DNA from: Promethearchaeota archaeon
GTDB lineage: Archaea; Asgardarchaeota; Lokiarchaeia; Sigyniarchaeales; SOKP01
DNA: 64,000 nt
Reading direction: 5' to 3'
NCBI GenBank assembly: GCA_019058365.1
Contig: JAHPZE010000001.1
Coordinates: 288,001 to 352,000 of the forward strand
In this document: positions 5,873-63,686 of the stretch, in pieces
How positions within the stretch are numbered: the first letter of the stretch is position 1
Layout: every line of letters starts with the position of its first letter
The notes under the pieces: generated by a model
What the model saw: only the letters and a program-made list of their open reading frames with translations
What the model was told of the DNA's origin: nothing
The model's database searches: none
Made by a program: the position numbers and the translations under genes

Positions 5873-6982
5873 TTAAATTTTCCATTTTCCGTCTTCATAA
5901 ATTATTTTATCATCAGCTAAAATTTTAGAGCCTGGGACAGTCATATCCTTTAGTATATCCCAATGTATCCCGCTTTTATTTTTTGAGCCAGCCTCTTCAA
6001 TTCCAGAACCAAGTGCGCAATGAATCGTACCCCCCATTTTTTCATCGAAAAGCATATTTTTTGTAAATCGAGTAATACCATAATTCGTCCCTATTGCAAA
6101 TTCACCTATTATATTAGCATTTTCTATTTTTAATATTTCTTTTAAAAATTCTCCTCCCTTTTCTGCTGAGGATTTTATTACCTTACCCTCTTTAAATTCC
6201 AAATATATATTTTGGATTTCTTTTCCTTGAAATATACCCGGATATGTAAATCTAATGTGACCATTAACAGAATCTTCTACTGGTGCGGTTAATACTTCAC
6301 CATCGGGCAGATTTAGATGGCCACATTCATTTATCCATAATCTTCCTTTAACTGACATTCTTAGATCAGTGTCCTCTCCAATTACTTGGATTTTTTCGGT
6401 ATCTTTTAAGTGTTTACAGATCTTATCCTGTCTTTTATCCATCTCTAACCATTCTTTAACCGGATCTTCCTTATCTAAAAATAAGGCCTTCTCTATGAAA
6501 TCAAAATAAGAAGAGAGATCCACATTTGCTTCTTGAGCAAATGCATTGCATGGAAATGGCAATGCTAAATATTTTAGGTCTTTAGTACCTATTCTCTTCA
6601 TTAAAATACCCCAAAGTTCCCTATTTGCTGGTGATCCTTGAACTTTTCCTAGTAATTTTGGATCAACCATACTCATTTTTCGAGTATTATAATCTCCAGA
6701 TATTTCTATATGAGAATCAAATTCTTGAACTATTGATTTAAATATAGGATCTACATAAACTAATTGTTCTTCAGAAGCATATTTTAATTTTAGTTCTTGA
6801 ATTCCTTCAATTCTCACATCAAGAAAAGGATAGCCTCCAGCTTTAATGATTTCGATATATAAAGCCTGGAAAAGCTCTTTTGCTAATGTATATCCATTAA
6901 TAGAGACTCTTTCTCCCTTCTTTATGTTAACAGAATAATTTACTGCTAATTTGGCTAACTTTTCATAAAATGGATTAATCAT
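5873..6982 (-). CDS. Aminopeptidase, peptidase M29 (AmpS/AmpT) family
   Basis: NLPDGEV, GEFAIGTN, LFDEKMGGTIHCALG, IHWDI. Confidence 0.93.
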   Translation of the reverse strand: MINPFYEKLAKLAVNYSVNIKKGERVSINGYTLAKELFQALYIEIIKAGGYPFLDVRIEGIQELKLKYASEEQLVYVDPIFKSIVQEFDSHIEISGDYNTRKMSMVDPKLLGKVQGSPANRELWGILMKRIGTKDLKYLALPFPCNAFAQEANVDLSSYFDFIEKALFLDKEDPVKEWLEMDKRQDKICKHLKDTEKIQVIGEDTDLRMSVKGRLWINECGHLNLPDGEVLTAPVEDSVNGHIRFTYPGIFQGKEIQNIYLEFKEGKVIKSSAEKGGEFLKEILKIENANIIGEFAIGTNYGITRFTKNMLFDEKMGGTIHCALGSGIEEAGSKNKSGIHWDILKDMTVPGSKILADDKIIYEDGKWKI

Positions 6983-50557: not shown

Positions 50558-51619
50558 CTATGCTTCTGGAATTAAAATATTAAATTTGCTTCCTTGAGAA
50601 AAATCTCCGGATATTTTGTCTTCAACCCAGATTTTTCCATTATATTTTGCTATTATTTTATTAACAATTGATAAACCAAAACCCATTCCTTTAGAATATT
50701 TATCTTTATTTAATTTTCTCTTAAATATAATTTCTTTCCTTTCATCGGGTATTCCAATACCATTATCAATAATTTCAATTTTTATATAATTTATTCCATT
50801 ACTAATCTTCCTTGAAATATTTACATTAATTTCCACATTAGGATTATCATTATATTTTACACTATTAATTATTATATTCTCAAACATATCTAATAAGAGC
50901 TCATTCGCTATTACCCATATCTTTTTATCTGGAGTATCTATTGAGATTGATAATTCTCTATCAAGTATACTTCTTTGAAGAAATGTAATTGCCTCTTCAA
51001 GAATTCTATTTACATCTACATTTTCTAAATACATTTCAGAATCCTCTAAATTCGCAAGCTGTTGTGCATTTGAAACTAGCCTCATGCCTCTAAAACCTTG
51101 ATCTCTTATTATATCTATTAACATATCCAAGTCCTTCGCATTTTTACCATTTTTTCTATATAATGAGTAGAGTTCTGTTGCTGATTTAATATGCTGAATT
51201 ATATTGTTAATATCATGAGTCAGAAGGTCTCTATAAAAGATTAAATCCTCGTATGCTTTATTTAGTTCTTCAGTCTTGGAGATTTCTTCGCTTAAAAAGC
51301 TTATTATAATACCTATAATTATAAGAAATAATGCACGGAGGAGGTTATCTATGTTATATAAAGTTAATATATCCATTCCAAATAAAAAAGGAAAGAAAAT
51401 CAGTGAAATTGCTAGAAATATAGGAACAATTAAACCTTTTTTTTTCCACCAAAGACATGCTAGAATTGTTGGAATATAAAAGAAATGTGAAAAAACTACA
51501 TTAGTATTATGAATTACCTGAAACAAATAATTTAGGAGAGACGAAATAATTAAGAAAAAAGTTAGAATAACCAATTTTAATTTATTTAAATATTTTTCAA
51601 ACTGTGTTTTTATAATCAT
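50558..51619 (-). CDS. Membrane sensor histidine kinase (DUF4118-like TM region)
   Basis: HFFYIPTILACLWW TM bundle; HDINN; N-box; DNGIG; GMGFGL. Confidence 0.9.
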   Translation of the reverse strand: MIIKTQFEKYLNKLKLVILTFFLIISSLLNYLFQVIHNTNVVFSHFFYIPTILACLWWKKKGLIVPIFLAISLIFFPFLFGMDILTLYNIDNLLRALFLIIIGIIISFLSEEISKTEELNKAYEDLIFYRDLLTHDINNIIQHIKSATELYSLYRKNGKNAKDLDMLIDIIRDQGFRGMRLVSNAQQLANLEDSEMYLENVDVNRILEEAITFLQRSILDRELSISIDTPDKKIWVIANELLLDMFENIIINSVKYNDNPNVEINVNISRKISNGINYIKIEIIDNGIGIPDERKEIIFKRKLNKDKYSKGMGFGLSIVNKIIAKYNGKIWVEDKISGDFSQGSKFNILIPEA

Positions 51620-51718: not shown

Positions 51719-53032
51719 TTAATGCGTTGCACATGATATGCAAGGATCAAAGGCTCTAATTATCCTCTGAACACTATTTTTCACTAAATTAATATCTCCT
51801 GTTCTTTCAAATAATACTTTTGCATAATTCGTAATCATTTCATTTATTAGTGGAATATTAAACTCAGTTGCTACAAATAATTTTATACGATCAATAGAAT
51901 TATGATTATTTACATAATAATGATGTAAAAGTGTCCCTCTGGGGGCCTCAATAACACCGATCCCATCAATTTTTTTTACGGAGTTCAGAGAGGAGATTTC
52001 TTGTTTAACAGTTAAATTATGATCATCTAAAATTTGTATACTCTGGACACTTTCTATATACATTTCTAATAATCTAATAAAATTAGCAAATAGAATATTA
52101 TTTTTCCATGGTTTATCAAAATATTCTAGATAAGTCTGAATTTCATCTGTACCATAATTCTCGTTAATATTGTATCTGGTTAAAGGTCCTACTATAACAT
52201 TTTTTTTATTATCAAAGTAAAAGTCTATTCCACGTAATTCAGGCTCCTTTCCAAAATAGGAAGAATAATTCTGCTTTTCAAATTCTATCATATTTCTATT
52301 AGTTTCTTTCAATGATAACCTACCTGAATATCGATTATAATTTCTTAAATTCGAGAGACCGAGATAAATGAGATTTGGAGCATCGAATTCTTTAGGTGGT
52401 AATTGATGAGAAAATAATTCAATAAATTTTTCAATGATCCATTCCAAACTGATTAAAGCATTTTGAAATCTTTTTTTAGCTATTGATATATCCTTTTTGG
52501 AAGGAGAGTAAATAATTCCTCCAGGAATAAGTGAAATTAAATGAATTGATCTACCCCCAAACAAATTATTAATTTCATTTCCAATTTTAATTAGTTCATA
52601 TATATTTGAAGTTATTTGAGGGTCGTAATTAATTAAATCATAAGCAGTTGTAGTTTTCTGACTAATATTAAAAATATTTAATAGATCTGGTAATGTTTGG
52701 AAAAAGAAACTCATAGAATGTGATTTGATTAATTCTCCAGTCATTAAAATGCGCCTTAAGAGTTTTGCTTGTTCTGAAACCTTAATATTATATATATCCT
52801 CAATTGCTTTACAACTCGCGATTGCTTGAGAAGCATAACATAATCCACATATCCTAGGAACTATTTTTGGAATATCTAATAATTTCTTTCCAATTAAGAA
52901 ATTTTCAAAACCTCTATAAATTTTAAATTCAAAATTTACTAACGAAATTTCATCATTTTGAACTAAAATTTTTATTTCCCCATGCCCTTCAACACGTTTA
53001 CAAACATCAATGACTTTTAACATTTTTTTCAC
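51719..53032 (-). CDS. mvhA: Group 3 [NiFe]-hydrogenase large subunit (MvhA-like), lacking the C-terminal extension
   Basis: RVEGHG, RGFE, PRICGLCYASQ, EAPRGTLLHHY, RAFDPCISCATH-stop. Confidence 0.9.
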   Translation of the reverse strand: MKKMLKVIDVCKRVEGHGEIKILVQNDEISLVNFEFKIYRGFENFLIGKKLLDIPKIVPRICGLCYASQAIASCKAIEDIYNIKVSEQAKLLRRILMTGELIKSHSMSFFFQTLPDLLNIFNISQKTTTAYDLINYDPQITSNIYELIKIGNEINNLFGGRSIHLISLIPGGIIYSPSKKDISIAKKRFQNALISLEWIIEKFIELFSHQLPPKEFDAPNLIYLGLSNLRNYNRYSGRLSLKETNRNMIEFEKQNYSSYFGKEPELRGIDFYFDNKKNVIVGPLTRYNINENYGTDEIQTYLEYFDKPWKNNILFANFIRLLEMYIESVQSIQILDDHNLTVKQEISSLNSVKKIDGIGVIEAPRGTLLHHYYVNNHNSIDRIKLFVATEFNIPLINEMITNYAKVLFERTGDINLVKNSVQRIIRAFDPCISCATH

Positions 53033-53787
53033 CCTTCCAATTTTGGTTTCGAGAATCGGTAAAAAATACCAGTGTAGTTTTTGAGTTCTTCAGATAAATT
53101 TATTAAACTCAAATAGTTAACAAGGTTAGAAGTAAAATCTTTTGATACTGGTCCTATACATCCTTCACAGGGAAGTCCCATCTTAATACACATATGTTCA
53201 CACCCATCTCGTATAATAGGTCCTAAACATAAAATACCCTTTGCTAAAAAACATTCAGAGTTTTCCTCATCAAGTTTAATCTCTTCTGGATTTGGTGTAA
53301 TTTTTGAGATATTTATATTTGAATTTATTTCCATGTTCCCTCTTAATGGGCAACTACCACACATATTTTTTTCAGAGAGTTCTATTTCTTTATTTTCAAC
53401 CAATCTAATTAGACAATTACCAAAAAGTTTCATAGGTGGTGGACAACCTGGAATGATACCATCAATTTCAATATATCTTGAAATTGGTTCTGTCATTTTT
53501 ATATCTGATAGGCTTAAAATTCCTCCAAAACAAGCACAAGTTCCTAATGCATATATTTTTTTAGCTTGTTTTCGGATTTTTCGAAGGATAGGTATTTGAT
53601 CATCTTCAGAAACACATCCTTCAATTAAACAAACATCACAATCTTCAATATCCATTACATCGGAAATAAATTGAAAGTAAATTACTTTAGTACGTTCAAG
53701 GAATTGTGGAAAAATATCTAACGATATAAGAGAAGAGATGCATCCACTACAAGATGTTAAAGATATTATTGCAAATTTACGTTTCAA
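53029..53787 (-). CDS. mvhG: [NiFe]-hydrogenase small subunit (MvhG-like)
   Basis: SCSGC, GTCACFGG, PGCPP, CGSCP, CLGP..GC..C..PCEGC; TTG start at 53787 after GGAGG; GTGA overlap with mvhA. Confidence 0.88.
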   Translation of the reverse strand: MKRKFAIISLTSCSGCISSLISLDIFPQFLERTKVIYFQFISDVMDIEDCDVCLIEGCVSEDDQIPILRKIRKQAKKIYALGTCACFGGILSLSDIKMTEPISRYIEIDGIIPGCPPPMKLFGNCLIRLVENKEIELSEKNMCGSCPLRGNMEINSNINISKITPNPEEIKLDEENSECFLAKGILCLGPIIRDGCEHMCIKMGLPCEGCIGPVSKDFTSNLVNYLSLINLSEELKNYTGIFYRFSKPKLEG

Positions 53788-56326
53788 ATTTAACCTCCTC
53801 CAATAATTTATTATAAAATTTATTAGCAACCTCAGCAAACTTGTTCCCTTCAACAGCATTCAAATGTTTAAGAATTATTCGCTCACGGTATTTTGTCGGG
53901 ATAATATTTTTTAATATCAATATTTTTTTTTCTACTTTCTCTACTCCATCAATATATCGACACGCATTTTTTCTACAACCAATTATCATCACTCCATCAA
54001 AACCTAACTCAAACGATTTAATTATGAAATTCGTATCTATGCGACCAGTGCAAGGAACACTTAAAATAAAGATATTTGGATTATATGAGATCTTCTTAAG
54101 ACCCGCATCATCTGCAGCAGCATAACCACAAGAACGACAACAAAAGGCAATAATTTTAGGTTGTTTTCTAAATTTCGAAAAAATTTCAATTGATTTTAAA
54201 ATCTTCTCAGAATTATCTATGTTTAAATCTATCGCATTAGTGGGACAAATACTAGCGCATGTACCACATCCCTTACATTTAAATTTATCTATATTTACTT
54301 TTTCTGATTCTATTGTAATTGCATTGTAAGGACAAATTTTAGAACACAATCCACATAAGCCACACTTGTTATCATCGATTTCGATTCCACTAAACTCCGC
54401 TATCAAATAATCATTAGAGAGTAATGAAATGATTTTAATCGCTGTATTATTAGCTGTTGAAATCGTAGAATTATAATCTAATGGACCAAATATAGTTCCA
54501 ACCCCATATATTCCAGATGCTAATGTCTCTTCACTCATAAAACCATAATCATCTAATGTAAAATCCATTGTTTTTCGAAATGCTTTTAAGTCTTTATTTG
54601 GTACTAAAGTTTGATTTAACACTATTAAGTCACTTGGATATTCTTTTGAATCGACTTTTACTATCTTTTGATCGTTTTTTTCAACAATTTTTACTTTATT
54701 AGAATAATGTATCCTAGAATCCATGGATCTTAGTGTAAAGTCGTCTGCTTTTTTTATCTTACTTAAATCGTAAAAAATATTGACTTTACAATCAGGATTT
54801 TTTACTTCAACATAATTTAAATATTTTAAAGCAAGGATATCTTGAAGTTTATGTTGATGATCAGGGTGTCCAGCATATTGAATAATCGAAATCGTCTTTG
54901 GAGGCGTTTTATCAGAAATTTTTACTATTTTACCTTCTGTGAAGCCATCAGAAGATAACATTCTTTCAAACTCCGATGATGTAATGATATCATTTTGTGG
55001 GTTATAACAATATTCATCTAAATCTGTAAAAAGATCAGAACCGATAGCTATAACTTTAGTACCTACCTTAATTTCAATTTTTTCTGGTTTTTGTGTCAAA
55101 TCTATTGCTTTATTAACGCATGCACGTTCACAAATTCTGCAATTAAGACAATTCTTAATATCTGATTCATCAATTAAAGGAACATAGGGAAAAGAATGAA
55201 TAAATGGGATATAAATAATTTTTCTATTATTTAATCCAAATTCATATTGATTTTGTTTTTCAATACTGCATACTTTTATGCATTGTTTACAACCAGTACA
55301 TTTCTTTGTATCTACATATCGCGGTTTTTTAATCAAATTAAGAGTAAAATTTCCGACTTCTCCTGAAACACTTTCTATTTCAGTATTAGTAAGTACTTTT
55401 ACATTTTTTTCATTCACCAACTCACCTATTAATTCTGAAATGAAGCATATAGAACAATCGCCCATATTATGTATTCGATCCCATCGGGCTACTTTACCTC
55501 CCAAAGTTGGTGATTTCTCAATAACATATACTTTTATTCCAGCTCGAGCTAAGTTTAATGCAAGTGTTATACCCGCTATTCCACCTCCTAAAATTGCAGC
55601 ACTTTTTTCAATTTCAACTCTCTTAATTTTTACTTTTTTTTGAAGACTAACGCGTTCAACTGCTGCTTCAATTAATAATTTTGCCTTTTCTAATGAAAGA
55701 GAGGGATCGATTTGATTAATTTCGAATTGATGTACCCAACAACATTGTTCTCTAATATTTGCTATTTCTATATTCACATGTTCAATGACACCATCAAAAA
55801 TTCGCTTAAAAAGATGCTGATGAGTTTTTGGAGAGCAAGCAGCTATTACAATCTTGTTTAAAAAGTTATCTTTTACCCAATGTGTAATTTTATCAAAATT
55901 TTTTTGCTGGCATAAATTTTCGAAGATTTTTACAGATACAACCTTTCTTAACTTATTTACATATTTTTCAAGAGCAGTTATATTAATTACATTTGAAATT
56001 TCTGTATTGCAATTGCAAATTATTACTCCAATTCGGCTTATTTCACTTCCCTGAGAATCTAAGTATTCATCAATATTTTCTCCTGATAAAATTCTTTTGT
56101 TGAGATTTAGTATTTTTAATATACGTTTACCATCTTCCGTAAGAAAATATGATTTTTTATCTTTATTGATTAATGTACCAATTTTTTTGAGATGGAAATT
56201 TAACTGTCCTGTAGTATCTAAACCCAATTTTTCCATTAAATCTGTATAGGGAATATAACCCTCTTTTTCTAAAAGGAGTAAGATCTTTCTTCTAAACGGA
56301 TGAGATAATATAGAATATATATCCAT
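53777..56326 (-). CDS. Winged-helix (ArsR-like) / HdrA / MvhD fusion protein
   Basis: LSHPFRRKILLLL..YTDLMEKLGL.TGQLNFHLKK..YFLTEDG; RIGVIICNC, NIREQCCWVH, GGGIAG, two ferredoxin pairs; C-terminal AFCCRSCGY..PCTGR..GC..ACRY. Confidence 0.9.
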   Translation of the reverse strand: MDIYSILSHPFRRKILLLLEKEGYIPYTDLMEKLGLDTTGQLNFHLKKIGTLINKDKKSYFLTEDGKRILKILNLNKRILSGENIDEYLDSQGSEISRIGVIICNCNTEISNVINITALEKYVNKLRKVVSVKIFENLCQQKNFDKITHWVKDNFLNKIVIAACSPKTHQHLFKRIFDGVIEHVNIEIANIREQCCWVHQFEINQIDPSLSLEKAKLLIEAAVERVSLQKKVKIKRVEIEKSAAILGGGIAGITLALNLARAGIKVYVIEKSPTLGGKVARWDRIHNMGDCSICFISELIGELVNEKNVKVLTNTEIESVSGEVGNFTLNLIKKPRYVDTKKCTGCKQCIKVCSIEKQNQYEFGLNNRKIIYIPFIHSFPYVPLIDESDIKNCLNCRICERACVNKAIDLTQKPEKIEIKVGTKVIAIGSDLFTDLDEYCYNPQNDIITSSEFERMLSSDGFTEGKIVKISDKTPPKTISIIQYAGHPDHQHKLQDILALKYLNYVEVKNPDCKVNIFYDLSKIKKADDFTLRSMDSRIHYSNKVKIVEKNDQKIVKVDSKEYPSDLIVLNQTLVPNKDLKAFRKTMDFTLDDYGFMSEETLASGIYGVGTIFGPLDYNSTISTANNTAIKIISLLSNDYLIAEFSGIEIDDNKCGLCGLCSKICPYNAITIESEKVNIDKFKCKGCGTCASICPTNAIDLNIDNSEKILKSIEIFSKFRKQPKIIAFCCRSCGYAAADDAGLKKISYNPNIFILSVPCTGRIDTNFIIKSFELGFDGVMIIGCRKNACRYIDGVEKVEKKILILKNIIPTKYRERIILKHLNAVEGNKFAEVANKFYNKLLEEVKFET

Positions 56327-56412: not shown

Positions 56413-56588
56413 TGATAAACAAAATGATCTCTATGATAAATATCATTGTCAGAGTATATAAATATGATCCTTTTCCCATTTATAGTATTTGAAAGTAGTC
56501 AAATAAGTGTTAGAAAGATCATAGTTTTTATCATAAAAGCGATAGATCCTCTATAAGAAAATAATTATACGAAGATCAGATTCGTATA
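56413..56588. promoter_or_regulatory. Divergent promoter region with several inverted repeats
   Basis: TGATAAA-N5-TGATC at 56413 and inverted at 56517-56533; ATGATA-AA-TATCAT at 56433; TATACGAA-N7-TTCGTATA at 56566-56588. Confidence 0.5.
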
Positions 56589-56791
56589 TTAAGTCAAAAA
56601 AAGACTAAAAATTTTGTCAAATAATTAAAATTTCTCTTATCAGATTTTTTAAATTTACTTAAAATCATCATTTAATCTGAATAGCAGAAAAAAAAATGCA
56701 TTTTATTCTTTTGCAGATTTTTAGTTTTTTCAATTTCATGAATTTATTACATTATAATTAATAGTAGGTGATGTTTTACTAGGTGAATTAA

Positions 56792-58828
56792 ATGTCTGAG
56801 ATACAGACCATGGTGAGAATTGGAGTATATATCTGTAGATGAGGAGTTAATATCAGTACTTCTATCGACTGTGATCTTATTAGAGATTATGTTGAGGCCC
56901 TCCCAAACGTTATTGTTGCTAAAGTAAATGATTTTACTTGTAGCGATCCAGGACAAAAAATTATCAAAAACGATATTTTAGATTTAGACTTAAATCGAGT
57001 GGTTGTTGCAGCTTGTACACCTAAAATTCACGAATCCACCTATCGATTAGTTTTAGTTGAAGCAGGATTAAACCCATATTACTTCCAAATGGTTAATCTT
57101 CGTGAGCATTGTTCATTTACTCACTCGGGAAATAAGAGAAAAACTACTGAAAAAGCTATAAGGTTAGTGCAAGCAGGGATAAATCGTGCTAGAGAATTAG
57201 AGATAGTACCTTATAAAAAATTATCAGTAGAGAAATCGGTATTAATTATCGGTGCGGGTATTGCGGGAATGAATGCAGCATTAGATTTAGCAAATCAAGG
57301 AATAAATGTATATTTAGTCGAAAAAGAAGCTACAATTGGAGGTAAAATGGTACAATTAGATCGAATTTATCCCACAGACGATTGTGCTATATGAGTTCTA
57401 GCACCTATTATGGTTAGTACTTCAAAACATCCAAATATAACCTTATTTACTTGTAGTGAAATCATAAAATTTAGTGGCAACACTGGAAACTATAATGTTA
57501 TAATACACAAAAAAGCCCGGTATGTTAATGAAAGTAAATGCACGGGTTGTGGATTATGTACTACAAAATGTCCAATAAAGGTACCTAACGAATTTGATAG
57601 AGGTATGGGTGAACGAAGCGCAATTTACATACCTTTTCCCCAAGCAGTACCTAAGGTTGCTTTAATTGATAAGAGTGTTTGTATAGATTGCAAAAGTTGT
57701 GAAAAAATTTGTCCCGCAGAAGCTATTGACTTAGATCAAACCTCAGAATATATAGATTTAAAAGTTGGTGCAGTCATTATTGCAACGGGATGGGATGAAT
57801 ATCCAATTATGAAAAATAACGAATATAAATATGGTATTTATCTTGATGTTATTACTCAAATAGAATTGGAACGAATGTTAAGTCCAGTTGGACCAACTGG
57901 GGGTCATGTATGTAGAATTTCTGATGGAAAAATCCCAAAAACAGTCGCGATGATTCAATGCGTGGGTTCAAGATCCTTAAACGGGAATCCCTATTGCTCA
58001 GGAGTATGTTGTAATGTTGCACTTAAAAACGCTCAATTGTTAAAACATGAATATCCTGATATGGAAATTGTTATTTTTTATATAGATATGCGGACATGGG
58101 ATAAAGGAAATGAGGAATATTATAGAAAAGCGAGAGAAGCGGGGATAATGATGATTCGAGGAAAAGTAGGAGATGTAAGACAAGATCCCAACTTAAAAAA
58201 AATAAAAGTTACAGCTTCTTCAACTTTAACAAATGATTTTATTACAATGGATACCGATTTAGTTGTATTATCTACGGGAATGGTCCCCTCTAAAAAAACA
58301 ACACAAATCGTTGAGACTTTAGGAATTGCTAAAGATATAAATGGGTTTTTAACTGAAGTTCATGGATGCCTGAAACCTCAAGAGACAAATAATTTGGGTA
58401 TATATATATGTGGCTGTGCTGCTGGACCTAAAAATATCCCTTATTCCGTGTCAACTGCATTAGCTGCTGCAAGTAAAGCATCTACTTTACTCTGTAAAGA
58501 TACAATAACTCAAGAATTAATCATCGCTGAAGTAAATGAAAATTTATGTATGGGTTGCCATAGATGTGAAAAACTTTGTAATTATAATGCAATAAAAGTT
58601 AATAGAGAGAATATAGCTATAGTAGATGATTTAAAATGTAAAGGGTGCGGAGTTTGTGTATCATCATGCCCCGCTAGAGCAATTGATCTTAAATACTATA
58701 GAGATAAGCAAATTAGTGAAGAGATAAGAGGGATCTGTAGTACTGAACTTGAATATAAGGAAGAATATATTGAATCTATTGATCTTATTTGGAAAAAGAT
58801 TGAAGCATTAGCTCCTTATCAAACATAA
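56792..58828 (+). CDS. hdrA: Heterodisulfide reductase subunit A, selenoprotein with two Sec (U17, U201), 678 aa
   Basis: AGGTGA RBS then ATG 56792; TGA at 56840 in RIGVYICRUGVNI and TGA at 57392 in TDDCAIUVLAP, both at conserved Cys positions; joins ORFs 56999 and 57410 in one frame. Confidence 0.92.
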
Positions 58829-58935: not shown

Positions 58936-60066
58936 TTAATTCATATTAGTTTGATTTCTGATCTTTAAAGAAATTAATTTATTATACCAATCTAATTTCT
59001 TATTCTTCCACTCAATAGTTCTGTTAGATGGAACAATAAACTGCTCAATTATCCCTTTTGAAAGCATACTATTTATTACATTCTTACCATTATCAGTTCT
59101 AATTAATATCATAGAATATCCTTCTGGAGCTCCAGATGCCCCAACACTAATATCTGTAAATCTTCCCGTGAATTCATCACATTCATGGCAATTATTTCTT
59201 ACTGCGGGATTTAGAGTTTTCATATCGATTTCGAATTCTTTATTATCTTTTGTTTGGATAAAGAAATTCTTTTTTATCCAAGTCTTCTTAATATTAGTAG
59301 GAACTACTTCTATTTCTCTTTTTAAGATATCATATAATTTGTCATAAATAAAATTCTCAAAACAGAAAAGACCTATAATATATTTAATGACATGAGCAGG
59401 TTTAACATGTAAAAATTTCATTTTATTAACAGCCCTACATTGACAAGGAGTTCCAATAAATGCTATTCTTAGCTCGTCAATATCAAATATCTCCTTCTTT
59501 ATAAGAATTTCTTTCGGTATAGTGTATAAATTTTTTAAAGGGAATATTTGAGGAGAAATAGAATAACGTGTACCTGCTGATTTAAATAAATCCTCTTTAT
59601 CAAATATAATTTTTGGAACGGGTTTAAAATTGCGGTCAAATTCCGAAACAATAGCGGCATCAATTTTATGTTTTTCAAATAAATATGTTAGAATTGCTGA
59701 AACTACTCCTCCATCTTGTCCAACTTTTTCTAATACAGTATTTATTGCTTTAGCAGCAAGAATTTTAACAATTTTTCCAATATTATCTTCAATACAATAA
59801 ATCTCATTTAATTCTTTTAATAATACTTTAGTTTGAGGACAAATATAATAACAAACACCACATTTAGTACAGTTTTCAACACTTCTTTCTGATTTAAATT
59901 CGGGATTATATCCCTTCATTTCAATAACATCAAAACCTTGACTTTCGCAATATGCTATGCAAGCACCACATGCACAGCATTTATTACCATTAATTATTTC
60001 ATTTTTAAGATCTTCAAATGTTTTTACTTCATTTTGTAAAAGTTTCTCATAAGTTAATTCGGTCAT
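58936..60066 (-). CDS. frhB: Coenzyme F420 hydrogenase/dehydrogenase beta subunit with N-terminal ferredoxin
   Basis: GQDGGVVS, SAGTRY, GTPCQ, IGLFCFENF, CHEC, DISVG. Confidence 0.9.
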   Translation of the reverse strand: MTELTYEKLLQNEVKTFEDLKNEIINGNKCCACGACIAYCESQGFDVIEMKGYNPEFKSERSVENCTKCGVCYYICPQTKVLLKELNEIYCIEDNIGKIVKILAAKAINTVLEKVGQDGGVVSAILTYLFEKHKIDAAIVSEFDRNFKPVPKIIFDKEDLFKSAGTRYSISPQIFPLKNLYTIPKEILIKKEIFDIDELRIAFIGTPCQCRAVNKMKFLHVKPAHVIKYIIGLFCFENFIYDKLYDILKREIEVVPTNIKKTWIKKNFFIQTKDNKEFEIDMKTLNPAVRNNCHECDEFTGRFTDISVGASGAPEGYSMILIRTDNGKNVINSMLSKGIIEQFIVPSNRTIEWKNKKLDWYNKLISLKIRNQTNMN

Positions 60067-60080
60067 TACAATTCCTCTTT

Positions 60081-60572
60081 TTAATTCTTTTTATTATTAT
60101 ATTCAAATTCAAATACACCAGGTTTTTTAGGAATTCTTAATTCTCCAAATTCTTTGATTGATTTTGTAAAATTTTTAATTAATTCAGAAAATTGCCTTCC
60201 CTCACTTGCTGAAATAGAGCACAGTTCAAATCGATCTGCTTCAATTCCAAGATATTTTATTAATTTCTTTAAATGATCCATTCTAACTTGAGCATATTCA
60301 AACCCTTTCATATAATGACAATCACCCATATGGCATCCAATAATTAATACTCCATCTATTCCATTATTAAAAGCTCGTAGAATGAATGTAGGATCAACCC
60401 TACTAGAACACATGACCCTAATAATCCTAATATTTGGGGGATATTGGAACCTCGAAACACCTGCTAAGTCTGCACCAGCATAACTACACCAATTACAGCA
60501 AAAAACTAAAATATTTGGTTCAAATCCATATTTTACCTTTCTTTTTCTTTTTAACAGGAAAAATCCCCCCAA
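60081..60572 (-). CDS. mvhD: Methyl-viologen-reducing hydrogenase delta subunit (all-Cys form)
   Basis: FCCNWCSYAGADLAG, RVMCSSRV, GCHMGDCHY, ISASEG. Confidence 0.93.
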   Translation of the reverse strand: MGGFFLLKRKRKVKYGFEPNILVFCCNWCSYAGADLAGVSRFQYPPNIRIIRVMCSSRVDPTFILRAFNNGIDGVLIIGCHMGDCHYMKGFEYAQVRMDHLKKLIKYLGIEADRFELCSISASEGRQFSELIKNFTKSIKEFGELRIPKKPGVFEFEYNNKKN

Positions 60573-63500
60573 TTAAACAATTTCATAATCAATTATGTCT
60601 AAACTTGGTAATAAATCAATCATTTTGCTAATTTGAAATTTACTAAAATGATTTTGATCAATAGCCCCAACTGAACATTCCACAACACAAGCTCCGCACC
60701 CCTTACAAACAGCACTAATTATATGAGCCTTTTTCATAGATATATTATACAAACCCATCTCTTTACAGATTTCAACCAATTCAATTGCATTATAGGGGCA
60801 AATCTCAGTACATTTACCGCATCCTATACATTTTTCTTCATTTACATAAGAAGTAATACATTCAGTTTCTATTTCTCCTTTAACCATTATTATTGCTGCT
60901 CTTCCAGCAGCAGCATAAGCTTGAATAATACTTTCACCAATCCATTTCGGCCAATGAGCGCCTCCACAAAGGAAAATTCCTTCTGTTGCAAAATCAATTG
61001 GTCTAAGTTTTGCATCAGCTTCTAAGAAAAAGCCATCTGTATTTGTTGATACTTTTAACATTTTTGCTAATTGTTTTGTATCATCAGTAGGAACTTTTGG
61101 AGTGGCTAATATTAATAAATCAGTATCATATTTTATATTTGTTTGAGCGCCAATATTATTATATAAGATATGGAACTTATCATTTACATCACTGATTTTG
61201 ATATCATCAATTGAACGATATCTTTCATAAGTTACTTTCTTTCGAAGACCTCGCCATAAATTTTCAGCATTTAAATCGGAGAATTGAAATTCTCTATATA
61301 AAATATGAATTTGTGCTTTAGGGTTGATATTCAATAATTTTTCAATATTCTTTAATGCTACACCACAACAGATATTTGAGCAATAAGGTTTTATATTATC
61401 TCCCCTATTAAATTCGTTTCTTCTTTGATCTACGCACAAAATTATTGTAGCATCTTTAAATACGGGGACATCTTCATCACTCAATGCAGTTAATTCAGTT
61501 TGAGTAAGCAGACGATTAGGATATTTTTCCGATAAATCTGCCCATCTATTTGTTTTTATTTGTTTAGTTCCCGTAGAAACTATTATTGTACCTACATTGA
61601 ATTTTGTATATTTTGAACTATCATTAACATTTTTAACTTTTACTTGATAATTTCCAACATAACCTTGGATATCCTCTATTTCTGAATTTAATAAAATATG
61701 AATATCAGATTTGTTTTTCAAATCAGCAATTTTCTGTAAAATTTCATTTTTCGTAATAGGTATATAATATAAATCAATAAATTCAAGAGCGATACCTCCA
61801 AGAAAAGATTTCTTCTCTACAAGATATATCTCGAATCCTTGATTTGCCAAATTATGTGCAGTAGTTATTCCTGCTATTCCACCGCCAATAATTAAAGATG
61901 ATTTTTCAACTTTTTCTTTAATGGTTTCTAATGGTTTTAAATTAATAACCTTCGCTAAGTGCATTCTTATTAAATCACATGCTTTTTTAGTAGCCTCTTT
62001 AGGTTCATTTTGATGGACCCATGAATCTTGGTTTCTTATGTTTACTAGTTCAAATAAAAATGGATTTAATCCTACTTCTCTTAGAGTATTTTTAAAAAGT
62101 TGTTCATGAGTTCGCGGGGTACAAGAAGCAACTATAAATCTATTAAGATTGTATTTTACAATTAGTTCTTTAATCCGTTCTTGTGAATCAGAACTACAAG
62201 AATACATGTTTTCTTCAACATGAACAACATATGGTAATTTAGAAACATAGTTTACTACTTCAGGAACGTTAACAATACCCCCGATATTAATACCACACCG
62301 ACAAACTAAAATACCTACACGAGGTTTATCCTCTGGTTTTACTGGTATTTCTGGAGGATATTTCACTTTTATAATATTTTGAAATCTAACAGGATACAAT
62401 TTCTCACTAATTTTAGCTGCACATGCAGAACCTTCAGCAACAGCCATTTGAATGTCATTGGGTTTTCTAGAATAGCCAGTTACGAATATATTCTTTTTTT
62501 CAAGTAAAATTATATCAGTCTCACTAATATAACCTAAATCATCACAATCCAAACTGAGTTTTTTTAATAGCTTATAATAAGAAGGAGGTGGAGATAGTGC
62601 ACTAGCCAATATAACCATATCCACTTCAAAAGTTCCAACTTTTCCTTTATCAATATCTTCAAAATATAACTTTAATTTTCCGTTATCTAAATTTTCTTTA
62701 ACATATGAAACATGCCCGTTCACATATTTGACATTATATTCATTCTTACTTTTTTCAATAAATTCGTAAAAGTTCTTACCTTTTGCTCTGATTTCTGTGT
62801 TAAAAATATAGCAGTCGATATTTGGATCATGTTCTTTGACAACTATTGCTTCTTTAGCCGAATTCATGCAACATATGGCAGAACAATATTTTTTACATTC
62901 TGGATGATGAACGTTTCTGGAGCCTACACATTGTATAAAAGCAATTGAATGAGGATGTTTTTTATCATCTAATCTTATAATTTTACCACCTGTAGGCCCA
63001 TTTGCTGATAAAAGACGCTCAAATTGCATATTGGATAAAACATTAGGGGAAGAACCCGCAAAAGAATTATAAATTTCTGGCATTTCTTGATTATATCCTG
63101 TAGCAATAACAATAGCCCCTACTTTTAAATGTATTTCTTCTGGTTTTTGTAAAAAATCTATCGCTTCTGCACTACAAGCTTTAGCACAAAGTCCACATAT
63201 TCTATAATTTAAATATAAACATTTTGATTCATCAATGAGATATATTGGGGGTACTGAAGATGGAAAAGGAATATATATCGCACTTCGAGTTTTTAAATGA
63301 GTATCAAATTCGCTAGGAATTCCTCTAACGGGACAAATTTCGCCACAATCTCCACATCCTTTACAGAGGTCTTCTTTTAAATATCTTGGCTTCTTAATAA
63401 TTGTTATTGTGTAATCACCAGCAGTTCCTCTAATGTTTTTAATGTAAGAATAAGTAAATAACTCAATATTTGGATTTCTATATATATCAACCATTTTCGG

Positions 63501-63686
63501 AGCTAAGATGCATAAGCTACAATCAAGAGTAGGATATATTTTATCTAATTGGGCCATAGTACCTCCTATTGTTGGTTTAATTTCAACTAAATATACTTTA
63601 AAACCTAATTTGGTTAGATCTAAGGATGCTTGTATCCCTGAGATTCCTCCTCCAATAACCAAAACACTACTCCATAAATTTGGCAT
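60573..63686 (-). CDS. hdrA: Large HdrA paralogue with two FAD modules (Cys form)
   Basis: GGGISG..YPTLDCSLCILAP; internal RVGILVCRCGINI; second GGGIAG; CVGSR..YCSAICC. Confidence 0.9.
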   Translation of the reverse strand: MPNLWSSVLVIGGGISGIQASLDLTKLGFKVYLVEIKPTIGGTMAQLDKIYPTLDCSLCILAPKMVDIYRNPNIELFTYSYIKNIRGTAGDYTITIIKKPRYLKEDLCKGCGDCGEICPVRGIPSEFDTHLKTRSAIYIPFPSSVPPIYLIDESKCLYLNYRICGLCAKACSAEAIDFLQKPEEIHLKVGAIVIATGYNQEMPEIYNSFAGSSPNVLSNMQFERLLSANGPTGGKIIRLDDKKHPHSIAFIQCVGSRNVHHPECKKYCSAICCMNSAKEAIVVKEHDPNIDCYIFNTEIRAKGKNFYEFIEKSKNEYNVKYVNGHVSYVKENLDNGKLKLYFEDIDKGKVGTFEVDMVILASALSPPPSYYKLLKKLSLDCDDLGYISETDIILLEKKNIFVTGYSRKPNDIQMAVAEGSACAAKISEKLYPVRFQNIIKVKYPPEIPVKPEDKPRVGILVCRCGINIGGIVNVPEVVNYVSKLPYVVHVEENMYSCSSDSQERIKELIVKYNLNRFIVASCTPRTHEQLFKNTLREVGLNPFLFELVNIRNQDSWVHQNEPKEATKKACDLIRMHLAKVINLKPLETIKEKVEKSSLIIGGGIAGITTAHNLANQGFEIYLVEKKSFLGGIALEFIDLYYIPITKNEILQKIADLKNKSDIHILLNSEIEDIQGYVGNYQVKVKNVNDSSKYTKFNVGTIIVSTGTKQIKTNRWADLSEKYPNRLLTQTELTALSDEDVPVFKDATIILCVDQRRNEFNRGDNIKPYCSNICCGVALKNIEKLLNINPKAQIHILYREFQFSDLNAENLWRGLRKKVTYERYRSIDDIKISDVNDKFHILYNNIGAQTNIKYDTDLLILATPKVPTDDTKQLAKMLKVSTNTDGFFLEADAKLRPIDFATEGIFLCGGAHWPKWIGESIIQAYAAAGRAAIIMVKGEIETECITSYVNEEKCIGCGKCTEICPYNAIELVEICKEMGLYNISMKKAHIISAVCKGCGACVVECSVGAIDQNHFSKFQISKMIDLLPSLDIIDYEIV

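Follow-up and report, generated by a model that had tools for sequence, protein, structure and literature searches.

A winged-helix HdrA-MvhD fusion encoded with its own [NiFe] hydrogenase is a candidate H2/redox-responsive autorepressor in Promethearchaeota

The DNA analysed here, referred to as the window, is a stretch of 64,000 nucleotides from the genome of a Promethearchaeota archaeon (contig JAHPZE010000001.1, positions 288,001 to 352,000). On its minus strand, from position 56326 to 51719, lie three tightly packed genes that encode a fusion of a winged helix-turn-helix (wHTH) domain of family DUF7347 with HdrA and MvhD, an MvhG-like small subunit and an MvhA-like large subunit of a [NiFe] hydrogenase. 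An earlier reading of this DNA from the letters alone (the sequence-only reading) had described three overlapping genes of this kind, and all three open reading frames (ORFs) were found as described. The module is considered here as a candidate regulator that responds to H2 or to redox state and represses its own promoter. The genes and their divergent neighbour are as follows.

56326..53777, minus strand: fusion gene wHTH-HdrA-MvhD, 849 amino acids (aa), from the ORF and Pfam matches
53029..53787, minus strand: mvhG-like small subunit, 252 aa from a TTG codon at 53787, with cysteine motifs that align lengthwise with MvhG of structure 5ODC
51719..53032, minus strand: mvhA-like [NiFe] large subunit, 437 aa, from Pfam, NCBIfam and alignment to solved structures
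56792..58828, plus strand: divergent hdrA whose reading frame contains TGA at codons 17 and 201, presumably read as selenocysteine (Sec)

Pfam assigned residues 2-71 of the fusion protein to the DUF7347 wHTH family (PF24038; 40 bits, cut-off 27.6), followed by the HdrA body, two 4Fe-4S dicluster domains and MvhD/FlpD (residues 725-841). The best NCBIfam model was HdrA2 (NF040770), a known type of HdrA-MvhD fusion, which covered residues 98-841 with 578.6 bits and did not reach its cut-off of 1100. The longest ORF of the small subunit begins at 53859; the likely true start is TTG 53787, which lies behind the Shine-Dalgarno sequence GGAGGAGG, gives a protein beginning MKRKFAIISLTSCSGC and creates an 11-nt overlap with the end of the fusion gene that is also present in the gene calls of relatives. 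The large subunit starts at GTG 53032, overlapping the mvhG stop codon, or at ATG 53023, the position at which relatives begin. In some orthologues of the fusion gene (loci L062, L067 and L081 at position 6001, and locus L072) ATA or TTT is aligned with the ATG and the wHTH frame is open and conserved, a pattern that points to an unusual or upstream start codon. No hdrB or hdrC was found within the operon, as the sequence-only reading had stated; the nearest CCG-domain gene straddles the right end of the window, beside another HdrA-like cluster.

The distribution of this architecture was investigated in other genomes. A word-indexed search returned more than 120 clusters (90 % identity) of proteins of 845-855 aa carrying PF24038, for which the given source names were all Asgard, mostly Promethearchaeota or Lokiarchaeota. 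One genome per species was then scanned and yielded 58 fusion loci, 50 of them full length. Across a 400-genome sample of the phylum, the wHTH domain and the HdrA N-terminus occurred in one frame in most of the window's own family, and in-frame fusion matches with 38-58 % identity were also present in further families within the class and in four or more that belong to other classes. A sister family, including two single-contig genomes (4.3 and 6.0 Mb), gave only weak, non-fusion matches. Because the fusion is conserved and ancient across species and classes, it is neither a misassembly nor a one-off, the two outcomes against which a check in other genomes had been proposed. An exhaustive search for MvhA led to the same module: five representatives were looked up (31-47 % identical) and each lay behind genes for DUF7347-HdrA-MvhD and MvhG. 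The three genes are a unit of inheritance, in which the fusion is always accompanied by a hydrogenase of one and the same clade, and their neighbours vary. A short contig labelled Candidatus Deferrimicrobium (locus L092) encodes the first 384 fusion residues at 72 % identity; its place in a bacterial bin is probably a binning error.

The domain that sets this protein apart from known HdrA-MvhD fusions occupies its N-terminus.

56087..56326, minus strand: wHTH domain, residues 1-80, supported by Pfam DUF7347, conservation, an AlphaFold2 model, fold matches and a dimer model
56036..56086, minus strand: flexible linker, residues 81-97, from the wHTH to the HdrA N-terminal domain (predicted local distance difference test, pLDDT, 49-60)

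Mean column conservation was higher in the wHTH (0.889) than in any other domain (0.745-0.875), and the recognition-helix motif TG-LNFH was invariant even among members that are 49-64 % identical overall. The AlphaFold2 model of the domain (pLDDT 87) comprises helices 10-22, 27-34 and 39-48 (the recognition helix, TGQLNFHLKK), a wing at 53-62 and a final helix at 64-80. The top 50 fold matches in the PDB (Foldseek) were all wHTH DNA-binding proteins, and nearly all were regulators of the ArsR/SmtB, HxlR/DUF24 (YodB, QsrR) or MarR type, with template modelling scores of up to 0.71 and Foldseek E-values of 3e-3 or weaker; sequence comparison with the PDB was marginal (best E-value 0.013). A two-copy model of residues 1-97 reached an interaction prediction score from aligned errors (ipSAE) of 0.48, compared with 0.11 for the best control, and passed a mark that is attained by 20 of 30 proteins solved as pairs and by one of 23 solved as single chains; this pass may stem from likeness to solved ArsR dimers. 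The homodimer runs had at least 77 % of contacts in common, with a partner pLDDT of at least 85. In the model the chains meet through residues 2-13 and 68-89; helix 39-48 and the wing stay free, an arrangement like that of ArsR-type dimers. Judged from these models, the domain looks like a working dimeric repressor domain with free recognition helices, and DNA binding is predicted.

The spacer between the fusion gene and the divergent Sec-hdrA is 465 bp long and AT-rich. Upstream regions of the module contained recurring words, TGATAA/TTATCA and TGACAA/TTGTCA, which combine into an 18-bp dyad, TGAYAA-N6-TTRTCA. The following elements were located in the window.

56455..56463, minus strand: consensus archaeal TATA box ATTTATATA, with ATTT..AT columns that are invariant in 14 promoters
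56434..56451, no strand: candidate operator O1, TGATAA-ATATCA-TTGTCA, a perfect dyad that starts 3 bp downstream of the TATA box
56413..56430, no strand: possible weaker site O2, TGATAA-N6-TGATCT, two mismatches, 21 bp from O1
56614..56642, no strand: half-sites TTGTCA and TTATCA on the Sec-hdrA side, where relatives have perfect dyads at the same place

Alignment of the 14 promoters, drawn from three neighbourhood classes, gave a common layout of ATTTATATA, a gap of 3-4 bp, TGAYAA-N6-TTATCA and further half-sites, and in relatives a second copy of the dyad was often found 21 bp away, forming phased pairs. TATA box and dyad stand before the operon's first gene in the window, in 13 of 13 examined loci in which an frhB-like gene leads, and in loci with other neighbours. 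The window has no leading frhB-like gene, and there the promoter drives the fusion gene directly. If transcription begins about 25 bp past the centre of the TATA box, the dyad fills the gap between TATA box and start, and the leader is roughly 85-110 nt long. The space between TATA box and transcription start is where archaeal repressors act.

Perfect dyads number six in the 4.74 Mb genome, which is about the number expected by chance: O1, four in coding sequence and one in an unrelated spacer. A wide regulon in this genome is unsupported, as the four of six perfect sites inside coding regions look like chance. When one mismatch was allowed, 138 sites were found, of which just two lie within 300 bp of each other. 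This pair is 9.6 kb from the operon, at 181 and 287 bp upstream of a gene (contig position 353953) for a 209-aa protein that belongs to a family of about 205 aa. In relatives, the intergenic regions around the module carry 0.9-1.5 perfect dyads per kb, and dyads also occur before Sec-hdrA, before the operon of the ~205-aa family and before another HdrA-like operon. The sole two dyad sites in 10 kb of a relative with 40 % GC sit in the divergent intergenic spacer, and in a relative with 62 % GC this spacer contains AGACAA-N6-TTGTCC. Four fusion-less genomes that have an orthologue of Sec-hdrA contained no dyad upstream of it, with up to one mismatch allowed. A simple test for k-mers enriched over coding-rich controls overstated the signal; against intergenic controls of the same loci, the excess of the dyad was 1.5- to 2-fold. 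The genome-wide scan was taken as background, because those intergenic controls carried the same dyad before neighbouring hdr, frhB and ~205-aa genes. The dyad moves with the fusion gene through changes of neighbour and from 27 to 62 % GC.

These observations bear on whether the wHTH domain is the reader of the dyad. It could instead be a dimerization or protein-docking module, with the dyad as the site of an unlinked regulator of the neighbourhood. This we regard as improbable, as invariance within the domain falls on the recognition helix and the wing, both of which are exposed to solvent in the model, and the fold matches listed above are to DNA-binding proteins and nearly all to transcription regulators. 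The dyad, moreover, accompanies the fusion gene as just described and is absent upstream of Sec-hdrA in the four fusion-less genomes, and the neighbourhoods seen, beyond which no systematic search was made, share no other conserved gene for a DNA-binding protein. On the other side, wHTH folds also serve protein contacts, the modelled dimer forms through the flanking helices, and domain and dyad are tied by association. DUF7347 also occurs in the same genome (contig C52, locus L033:2864-4846, plus strand) in a 660-aa protein, joined to an ATP-cone and the anaerobic ribonucleotide reductase NrdD, and fusions in this lineage might thus have roles other than DNA binding. The NrdD protein recalls NrdR-type control integrated in an enzyme.

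The ~205-aa gene that is preceded by the clustered dyads is also inherited together with the fusion. Among 54 genomes of the window's genus, 36 contain both and 12 neither; the fusion occurs alone in five (all at most 88 % complete) and the ~205-aa gene alone in one (79 % complete). In many other lineages this gene and its partner are the divergent neighbour of the fusion gene. In the genome analysed here, they lie about 2 kb past the right end of the window (contig 353953-356262; locus L104:1954-4262), where the 209-aa gene is followed by a gene for a 559-aa protein with the N-terminal domain of methylene-tetrahydromethanopterin dehydrogenase (Mpt_N) and a Rossmann fold, and then by a glutamate dehydrogenase gene. 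The ~205-aa family was found in Promethearchaeota only; its matches in the Atlas are hypothetical clusters, and it has no Pfam match.

The remainder of the fusion protein consists of redox domains, in which one cluster motif has degenerated.

54167..56035, minus strand: HdrA-like body, residues 98-720, from full-length alignment to solved HdrA chains
54827..54880, minus strand: degenerate cluster motif of the thioredoxin-reductase domain, QYAGHPDHQHKLQDIL, from alignment to solved HdrA chains and orthologues
53777..54163, minus strand: MvhD domain, residues 722-849, and stop codon; Cys 729, 730, 733, 759, 784 and 789 are invariant

The HdrA body keeps the N-terminal four-cysteine cluster, the flavin adenine dinucleotide (FAD) domain with GGGIAG, the DCSIC pair and the inserted and C-terminal 2x[4Fe-4S] ferredoxin domains; across 50 orthologues the retained cysteine columns are at least 94 % conserved and nearly all invariant. 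Also kept is the ligand of the Cys197 type, which in HdrA marks an obligate dimer (PMC9012536). In total, the strictly kept electron-transfer sites are the FAD site, the N-terminal cluster, the DCxxC pair, four ferredoxin-type clusters, the 2Fe-2S cluster of MvhD, the clusters of MvhG and the nickel ligands. The canonical C-x-G-S-R-D...C-S-x-x-C-C of the thioredoxin-reductase domain, on the other hand, reads QYAGHPDHQ...HKLQDIL in the window protein, and the cluster motif was found neither there nor in the 50 orthologues nor in five distant members. The region around it is the least conserved of the protein, and no glycine-rich motif was seen when this cluster-less region was inspected for an NAD(P)H site. 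The lost motif is taken here to be that of the HA4 cluster, an assignment made by elimination with the help of PMC9012536 and of the 5ODC structure. Through this cluster of the thioredoxin-reductase domain, electrons pass from FAD to HdrBC (PMC9012536, PMC12350162, PMC13580544). Since the motif assigned to that route is absent, the family appears to have lost its HdrBC outlet and to have retained the rest of the electron chain. In anaerobic methanotrophic (ANME) archaea, HdrA is known to have lost clusters to a varying extent and to be linked with FrhB (PMC9012536).

These features argue against an ordinary electron-bifurcating Mvh-Hdr complex that borrows HdrBC from elsewhere and carries its N-terminal domain as a neutral addition. 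The genome does contain many CCG-domain (HdrB-like) and MvhD genes elsewhere, and the best family matches of the module proteins are HdrA2, VhuG and VhuA. However, all their NCBIfam scores are far under the curated cut-offs, the cluster between FAD and HdrBC is missing throughout the family, and hdrC- and hdrB-like genes adjoin the other hydrogenase of the genome, described below. The wHTH is not a neutral addition, because it is the most conserved domain of the protein. A bifurcating complex of the usual kind is therefore very improbable.

The large subunit differs from canonical group 3 hydrogenases at both of its active-site motifs.

52826..52855, minus strand: L1 motif RICGLCYASQ, with the nickel-binding Cys62 and Cys65 kept and Gln69 in place of the canonical His
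51719..51748, minus strand: L2 motif DPCISCATH, followed at once by the stop codon

In 46 of 46 close orthologues, L1 has the form RICGLC[Y/H]xxQ, and its Gln aligns with the canonical His. The subunit has no C-terminal maturation peptide, because the stop codon directly follows DPCISCATH, and 44 of 45 complete orthologues likewise end at the His of DPCxxCxxH; the nickel-binding cysteine pairs of L1 and L2 are conserved in 45-46 orthologues. Gln in place of the conserved His is characteristic of regulatory hydrogenases (PMC5665086), and a missing C-terminal extension is typical of groups 2b, 2d, 4c, 4e and 4g (PMC7294309). The two traits together are suggestive of a sensor hydrogenase and not diagnostic of one.

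By descent the subunit belongs with group 3, as the sequence-only reading had proposed. Its best matches among solved structures and families are 7T2R, 5ODC, VhuA and ShyA, all of group 3 and not of the group 2b clade, and in all relatives examined it is encoded with MvhG, MvhD and HdrA, the context of group 3c (Mvh-type). It scored 175 with the NCBIfam model VhuA (cut-off 800) and falls outside the canonical Mvh/Vhu clade, in which L1 has His and the C-terminal peptide is about 25 aa long. A phylogenetic tree of 62 representatives, reconstructed with FastTree and rooted at the midpoint, placed the fusion-linked MvhA proteins in a separate clade of eight members (Shimodaira-Hasegawa-like support 100) that have tails of 0-11 aa and, in most cases, Gln, apart from large subunits with L1 His and tails of 20-28 residues. 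Among 102 full-length representatives, L1 Gln was confined to this clade. The phylogeny that the sequence-only reading had called for thus separates the subunit from canonical Mvh/Vhu. Within its clade, Gln is common and not universal.

One further [NiFe] large subunit is encoded in the genome, on the same contig about 250 kb away (about 91-96 kb; locus L032:7414-11747). There, genes for a VhuG-like protein (438 aa), a VhuA without the L2 motif and a small Sec-containing VhuU-like ORF (FDCULSCAAH and a C-terminal tail) are followed by an hdrC-like gene and hdrB, and hypD and hypE adjoin. By its sequence, this second hydrogenase is of the Vhu-type [NiFeSe] kind. An endopeptidase of the HycI type is also encoded in the genome.

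Three points speak in favour of a sensor: the family has lost its HdrBC outlet, the large subunit has traits in common with regulatory hydrogenases, and the genome encodes a second hydrogenase. From the architecture, its conservation, the pattern of cofactor sites, the promoter element and its genomic specificity, we infer that the wHTH domain binds the dyad, that binding depends on redox state or H2, and that the role of the complex is mainly regulatory. An H2/redox-responsive autorepressor complex is, on balance, the explanation that we narrowly favour. The proposal of the sequence-only reading, an Mvh-Hdr module repurposed as an H2/redox sensor, is borne out as far as the conserved fusion, the repressor-like wHTH, the candidate operator, the lost HdrBC cluster, the sensor-hydrogenase traits and the separate Vhu hydrogenase are concerned. 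It fits less well with the remaining electron-transfer sites being intact, with the frhB-led operons and with the uneven occurrence of Gln.

A number of observations weigh against a sensory autorepressor. The intact redox set seems to exceed the apparent needs of a pure sensor. In about 20 lineages the same promoter precedes an frhB-like gene that heads the operon, and because this gene encodes an FrhB-like oxidoreductase, a real flux of electrons to a substrate is suggested. About a quarter of the genomes of the genus (about 13 of 54) have no fusion. The Gln of regulatory hydrogenases is apparently not involved in H2 sensing (PMC5665086), two members of the wHTH-linked clade (P0128 and P0132) keep His in L1, some of the groups without a C-terminal extension are non-sensory (PMC7294309), and the tail of the large subunit is likewise short or missing in other group 3 lineages. 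With respect to the operator, the finding that one of the six perfect dyads in the genome is O1 is partly circular, because the motif was derived from the same intergenic regions; the loci compared for the dyad are related and not independent samples; and the link between wHTH and dyad is one of guilt by association, so that another regulator could bind the dyad.

Several of these observations are shared with the main rival explanation. In PutA a DNA-binding domain is part of a flavoenzyme, and the redox state of the flavin determines whether the protein represses its own genes. The module could be a trigger enzyme of this kind, a working metabolic hydrogenase without HdrBC in which the wHTH adds feedback and represses the enzyme's own genes when it is idle or in a given redox state; such an enzyme might evolve H2 from reduced ferredoxin or swap electrons with an FrhB-like partner. 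The invariance of every electron-transfer site except the cluster directed to HdrBC, with both ferredoxin domains included, is as expected for it, as are the frhB-like gene at the head of the operon and the further FrhB-, MvhD- and HdrA-like genes nearby. Lokiarchaeia are described in the literature as H2-metabolizing, and the operator evidence fits this explanation and a pure sensor equally well. Nevertheless, the large subunit has the Gln and the missing extension of low-turnover sensors, the genome also encodes a separate hydrogenase of the Vhu type with hdrCB and hyp genes alongside, and conservation within the protein is lowest in the cluster-less region resembling thioredoxin reductase. 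Nor can an acceptor be named. We hold a metabolic enzyme with added feedback to be rather unlikely.

In the favoured autorepressor, a cytoplasmic [NiFe] hydrogenase (MvhA/MvhG) would be wired through MvhD to a dimeric flavoprotein of the HdrA type, each chain of which would bear an ArsR-like winged helix at its N-terminus on a flexible tether. The two wHTH domains would pair and, in the promoter of the complex itself, bind the TGAYAA-N6-TTRTCA dyad that sits past the TATA box and ahead of the transcription start, and transcription would be blocked. The same dyad would control a few co-inherited redox and one-carbon genes, namely the pair of ~205-aa and Mpt_N genes, Sec-hdrA and FrhB-like or HdrA-like genes. 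The signal would be how far the FAD and Fe-S chain of HdrA is reduced, as set by H2 at the Ni-Fe site, and ferredoxin may be a second input by way of the ferredoxin domains that HdrA has kept. Solved structures of Mvh-Hdr complexes show a mobile arm, made up of MvhD and the N-terminal domain of HdrA, that shifts its position over the catalytic cycle (PMC12350162, PMC13580544). Movement of this arm would change whether both wHTH domains fit on the operator. Such coupling between redox state and DNA binding is plausible because the wHTH hangs by about 17 flexible residues from the HdrA N-terminal domain of the mobile arm.

The genes surrounding the module are less constant. The sequence-only reading had placed a Sec-containing hdrA divergently from the operon. 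It is present here with its two in-frame TGA codons, but it is a neighbour in some lineages only; Sec-hdrA is a local neighbour that shares the intergenic region and lies outside the conserved part of the module. ORF callers split this gene (56792-58828), and its orthologues in four related genomes have an in-frame TGA within the first 200 codons. On the other side, 99 bp downstream of mvhA, lies a histidine-kinase-like gene (50558-51619, minus strand) with HATPase_c and a weak N-terminus of the DUF4118 type. It was considered as an output comparable to HoxJ and rejected: a homologue was found in only six of 46 related loci and in none of the distant members, and the gene is therefore placed outside the module. 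In about ten lineages a protein of about 340 aa is encoded directly downstream of mvhA (loci L055, L058, L059, L061-L063, L067, L075, L081, L087 and L036:12558-13571), with no Pfam match in the two that were scanned (L087 and L036), and at locus L095 this place is taken by a radical-SAM protein. Beyond Sec-hdrA, the window contains on the minus strand (58936-63686) genes for an FrhB-like protein (376 aa), an MvhD (163 aa) and a 1037-aa double HdrA-like protein, followed by the CCG-domain gene at the window edge. This FrhB-like/MvhD/double-HdrA block accompanies the hydrogenase module in several relatives.

The module can be compared with several known systems. It has in common with methanogen MvhAGD-HdrABC (5ODC, 8RVU, 9SW2) the [NiFe] subunits, MvhD and an HdrA with FAD, N-terminal cluster, DCxxC pair and two ferredoxin domains, and with the HdrA2 type the HdrA-MvhD fusion. 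In contrast to MvhAGD-HdrABC, it adds the N-terminal wHTH, has no cluster in the thioredoxin-reductase domain, no hdrBC in its operon and no maturation peptide, has Gln for the L1 His in most members, and its large subunit forms a separate clade. Group 2b sensors (HoxBC/HupUV with the kinase HoxJ/HupT and HoxA/HupR) share the Gln next to the active site and the missing C-terminal extension, and like the module they coexist with an energy-converting hydrogenase encoded elsewhere. The module is unrelated to them by descent, given its group 3 matches, and its output would be a DNA-binding domain attached to a flavoprotein in place of a histidine kinase and response regulator. The module resembles PutA in carrying a DNA-binding domain on a flavin-dependent redox protein and in having a candidate operator in its own divergent promoter region, whereas the DNA-binding fold and the enzyme are different and the input to the module would come from a hydrogenase through an Fe-S chain. 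Repressors of the ArsR/SmtB and HxlR/DUF24 (YodB, QsrR) families share the fold, the dimer through first and last helices (here modelled) and a dyad operator (here a candidate) that overlaps the core promoter. Unlike them, the wHTH of the fusion has no metal- or thiol-sensing site inside the domain, and the sensing part is a redox protein of about 750 aa plus a hydrogenase.

A three-gene cluster of Helarchaeota was described by Seitz et al. (2019) as a 'possible energy-transferring complex', possibly membrane-associated (PMC6478937, Fig. 5). It is likened to the module here by gene composition only, and no DNA-binding domain or operator was described there. Papers on Asgard metabolism treat group 3c hydrogenases as bifurcating enzymes of the MvhADG-HdrABC type. 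A literature search on DUF7347, HTH-HdrA, Asgard H2 sensing and group 3c sensory hydrogenases found no wHTH-HdrA fusion or regulatory role for one, and no description of an archaeal H2 sensor. The 18-bp TATA-proximal dyad across lineages, and its recurrence before co-inherited genes, are new here. The H2 sensors known to us are bacterial and signal through kinases or PAS domains.

It is possible, as a more tentative proposal than autorepression itself, that the module is the first archaeal H2 sensor and represents a new mode of sensing. A [NiFe] hydrogenase derived from group 3 would then act through MvhD on an HdrA arm that places its own wHTH on a TATA-proximal operator or removes it, with neither a kinase nor a second messenger, and would govern a small redox and one-carbon regulon in syntrophic Asgard archaea. 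The question is directly testable because protein and 18-bp site are defined and the list of target genes is short. The candidate is compact and widespread among Asgard archaea, whose lifestyle and proposed role in the origin of eukaryotes hinge on the exchange of H2. If the proposal is true, the HdrA scaffold would serve in these organisms as a signalling device instead of a bifurcating enzyme. Not all Asgard annotations of 'group 3c Mvh-Hdr' should be taken as electron-bifurcating.

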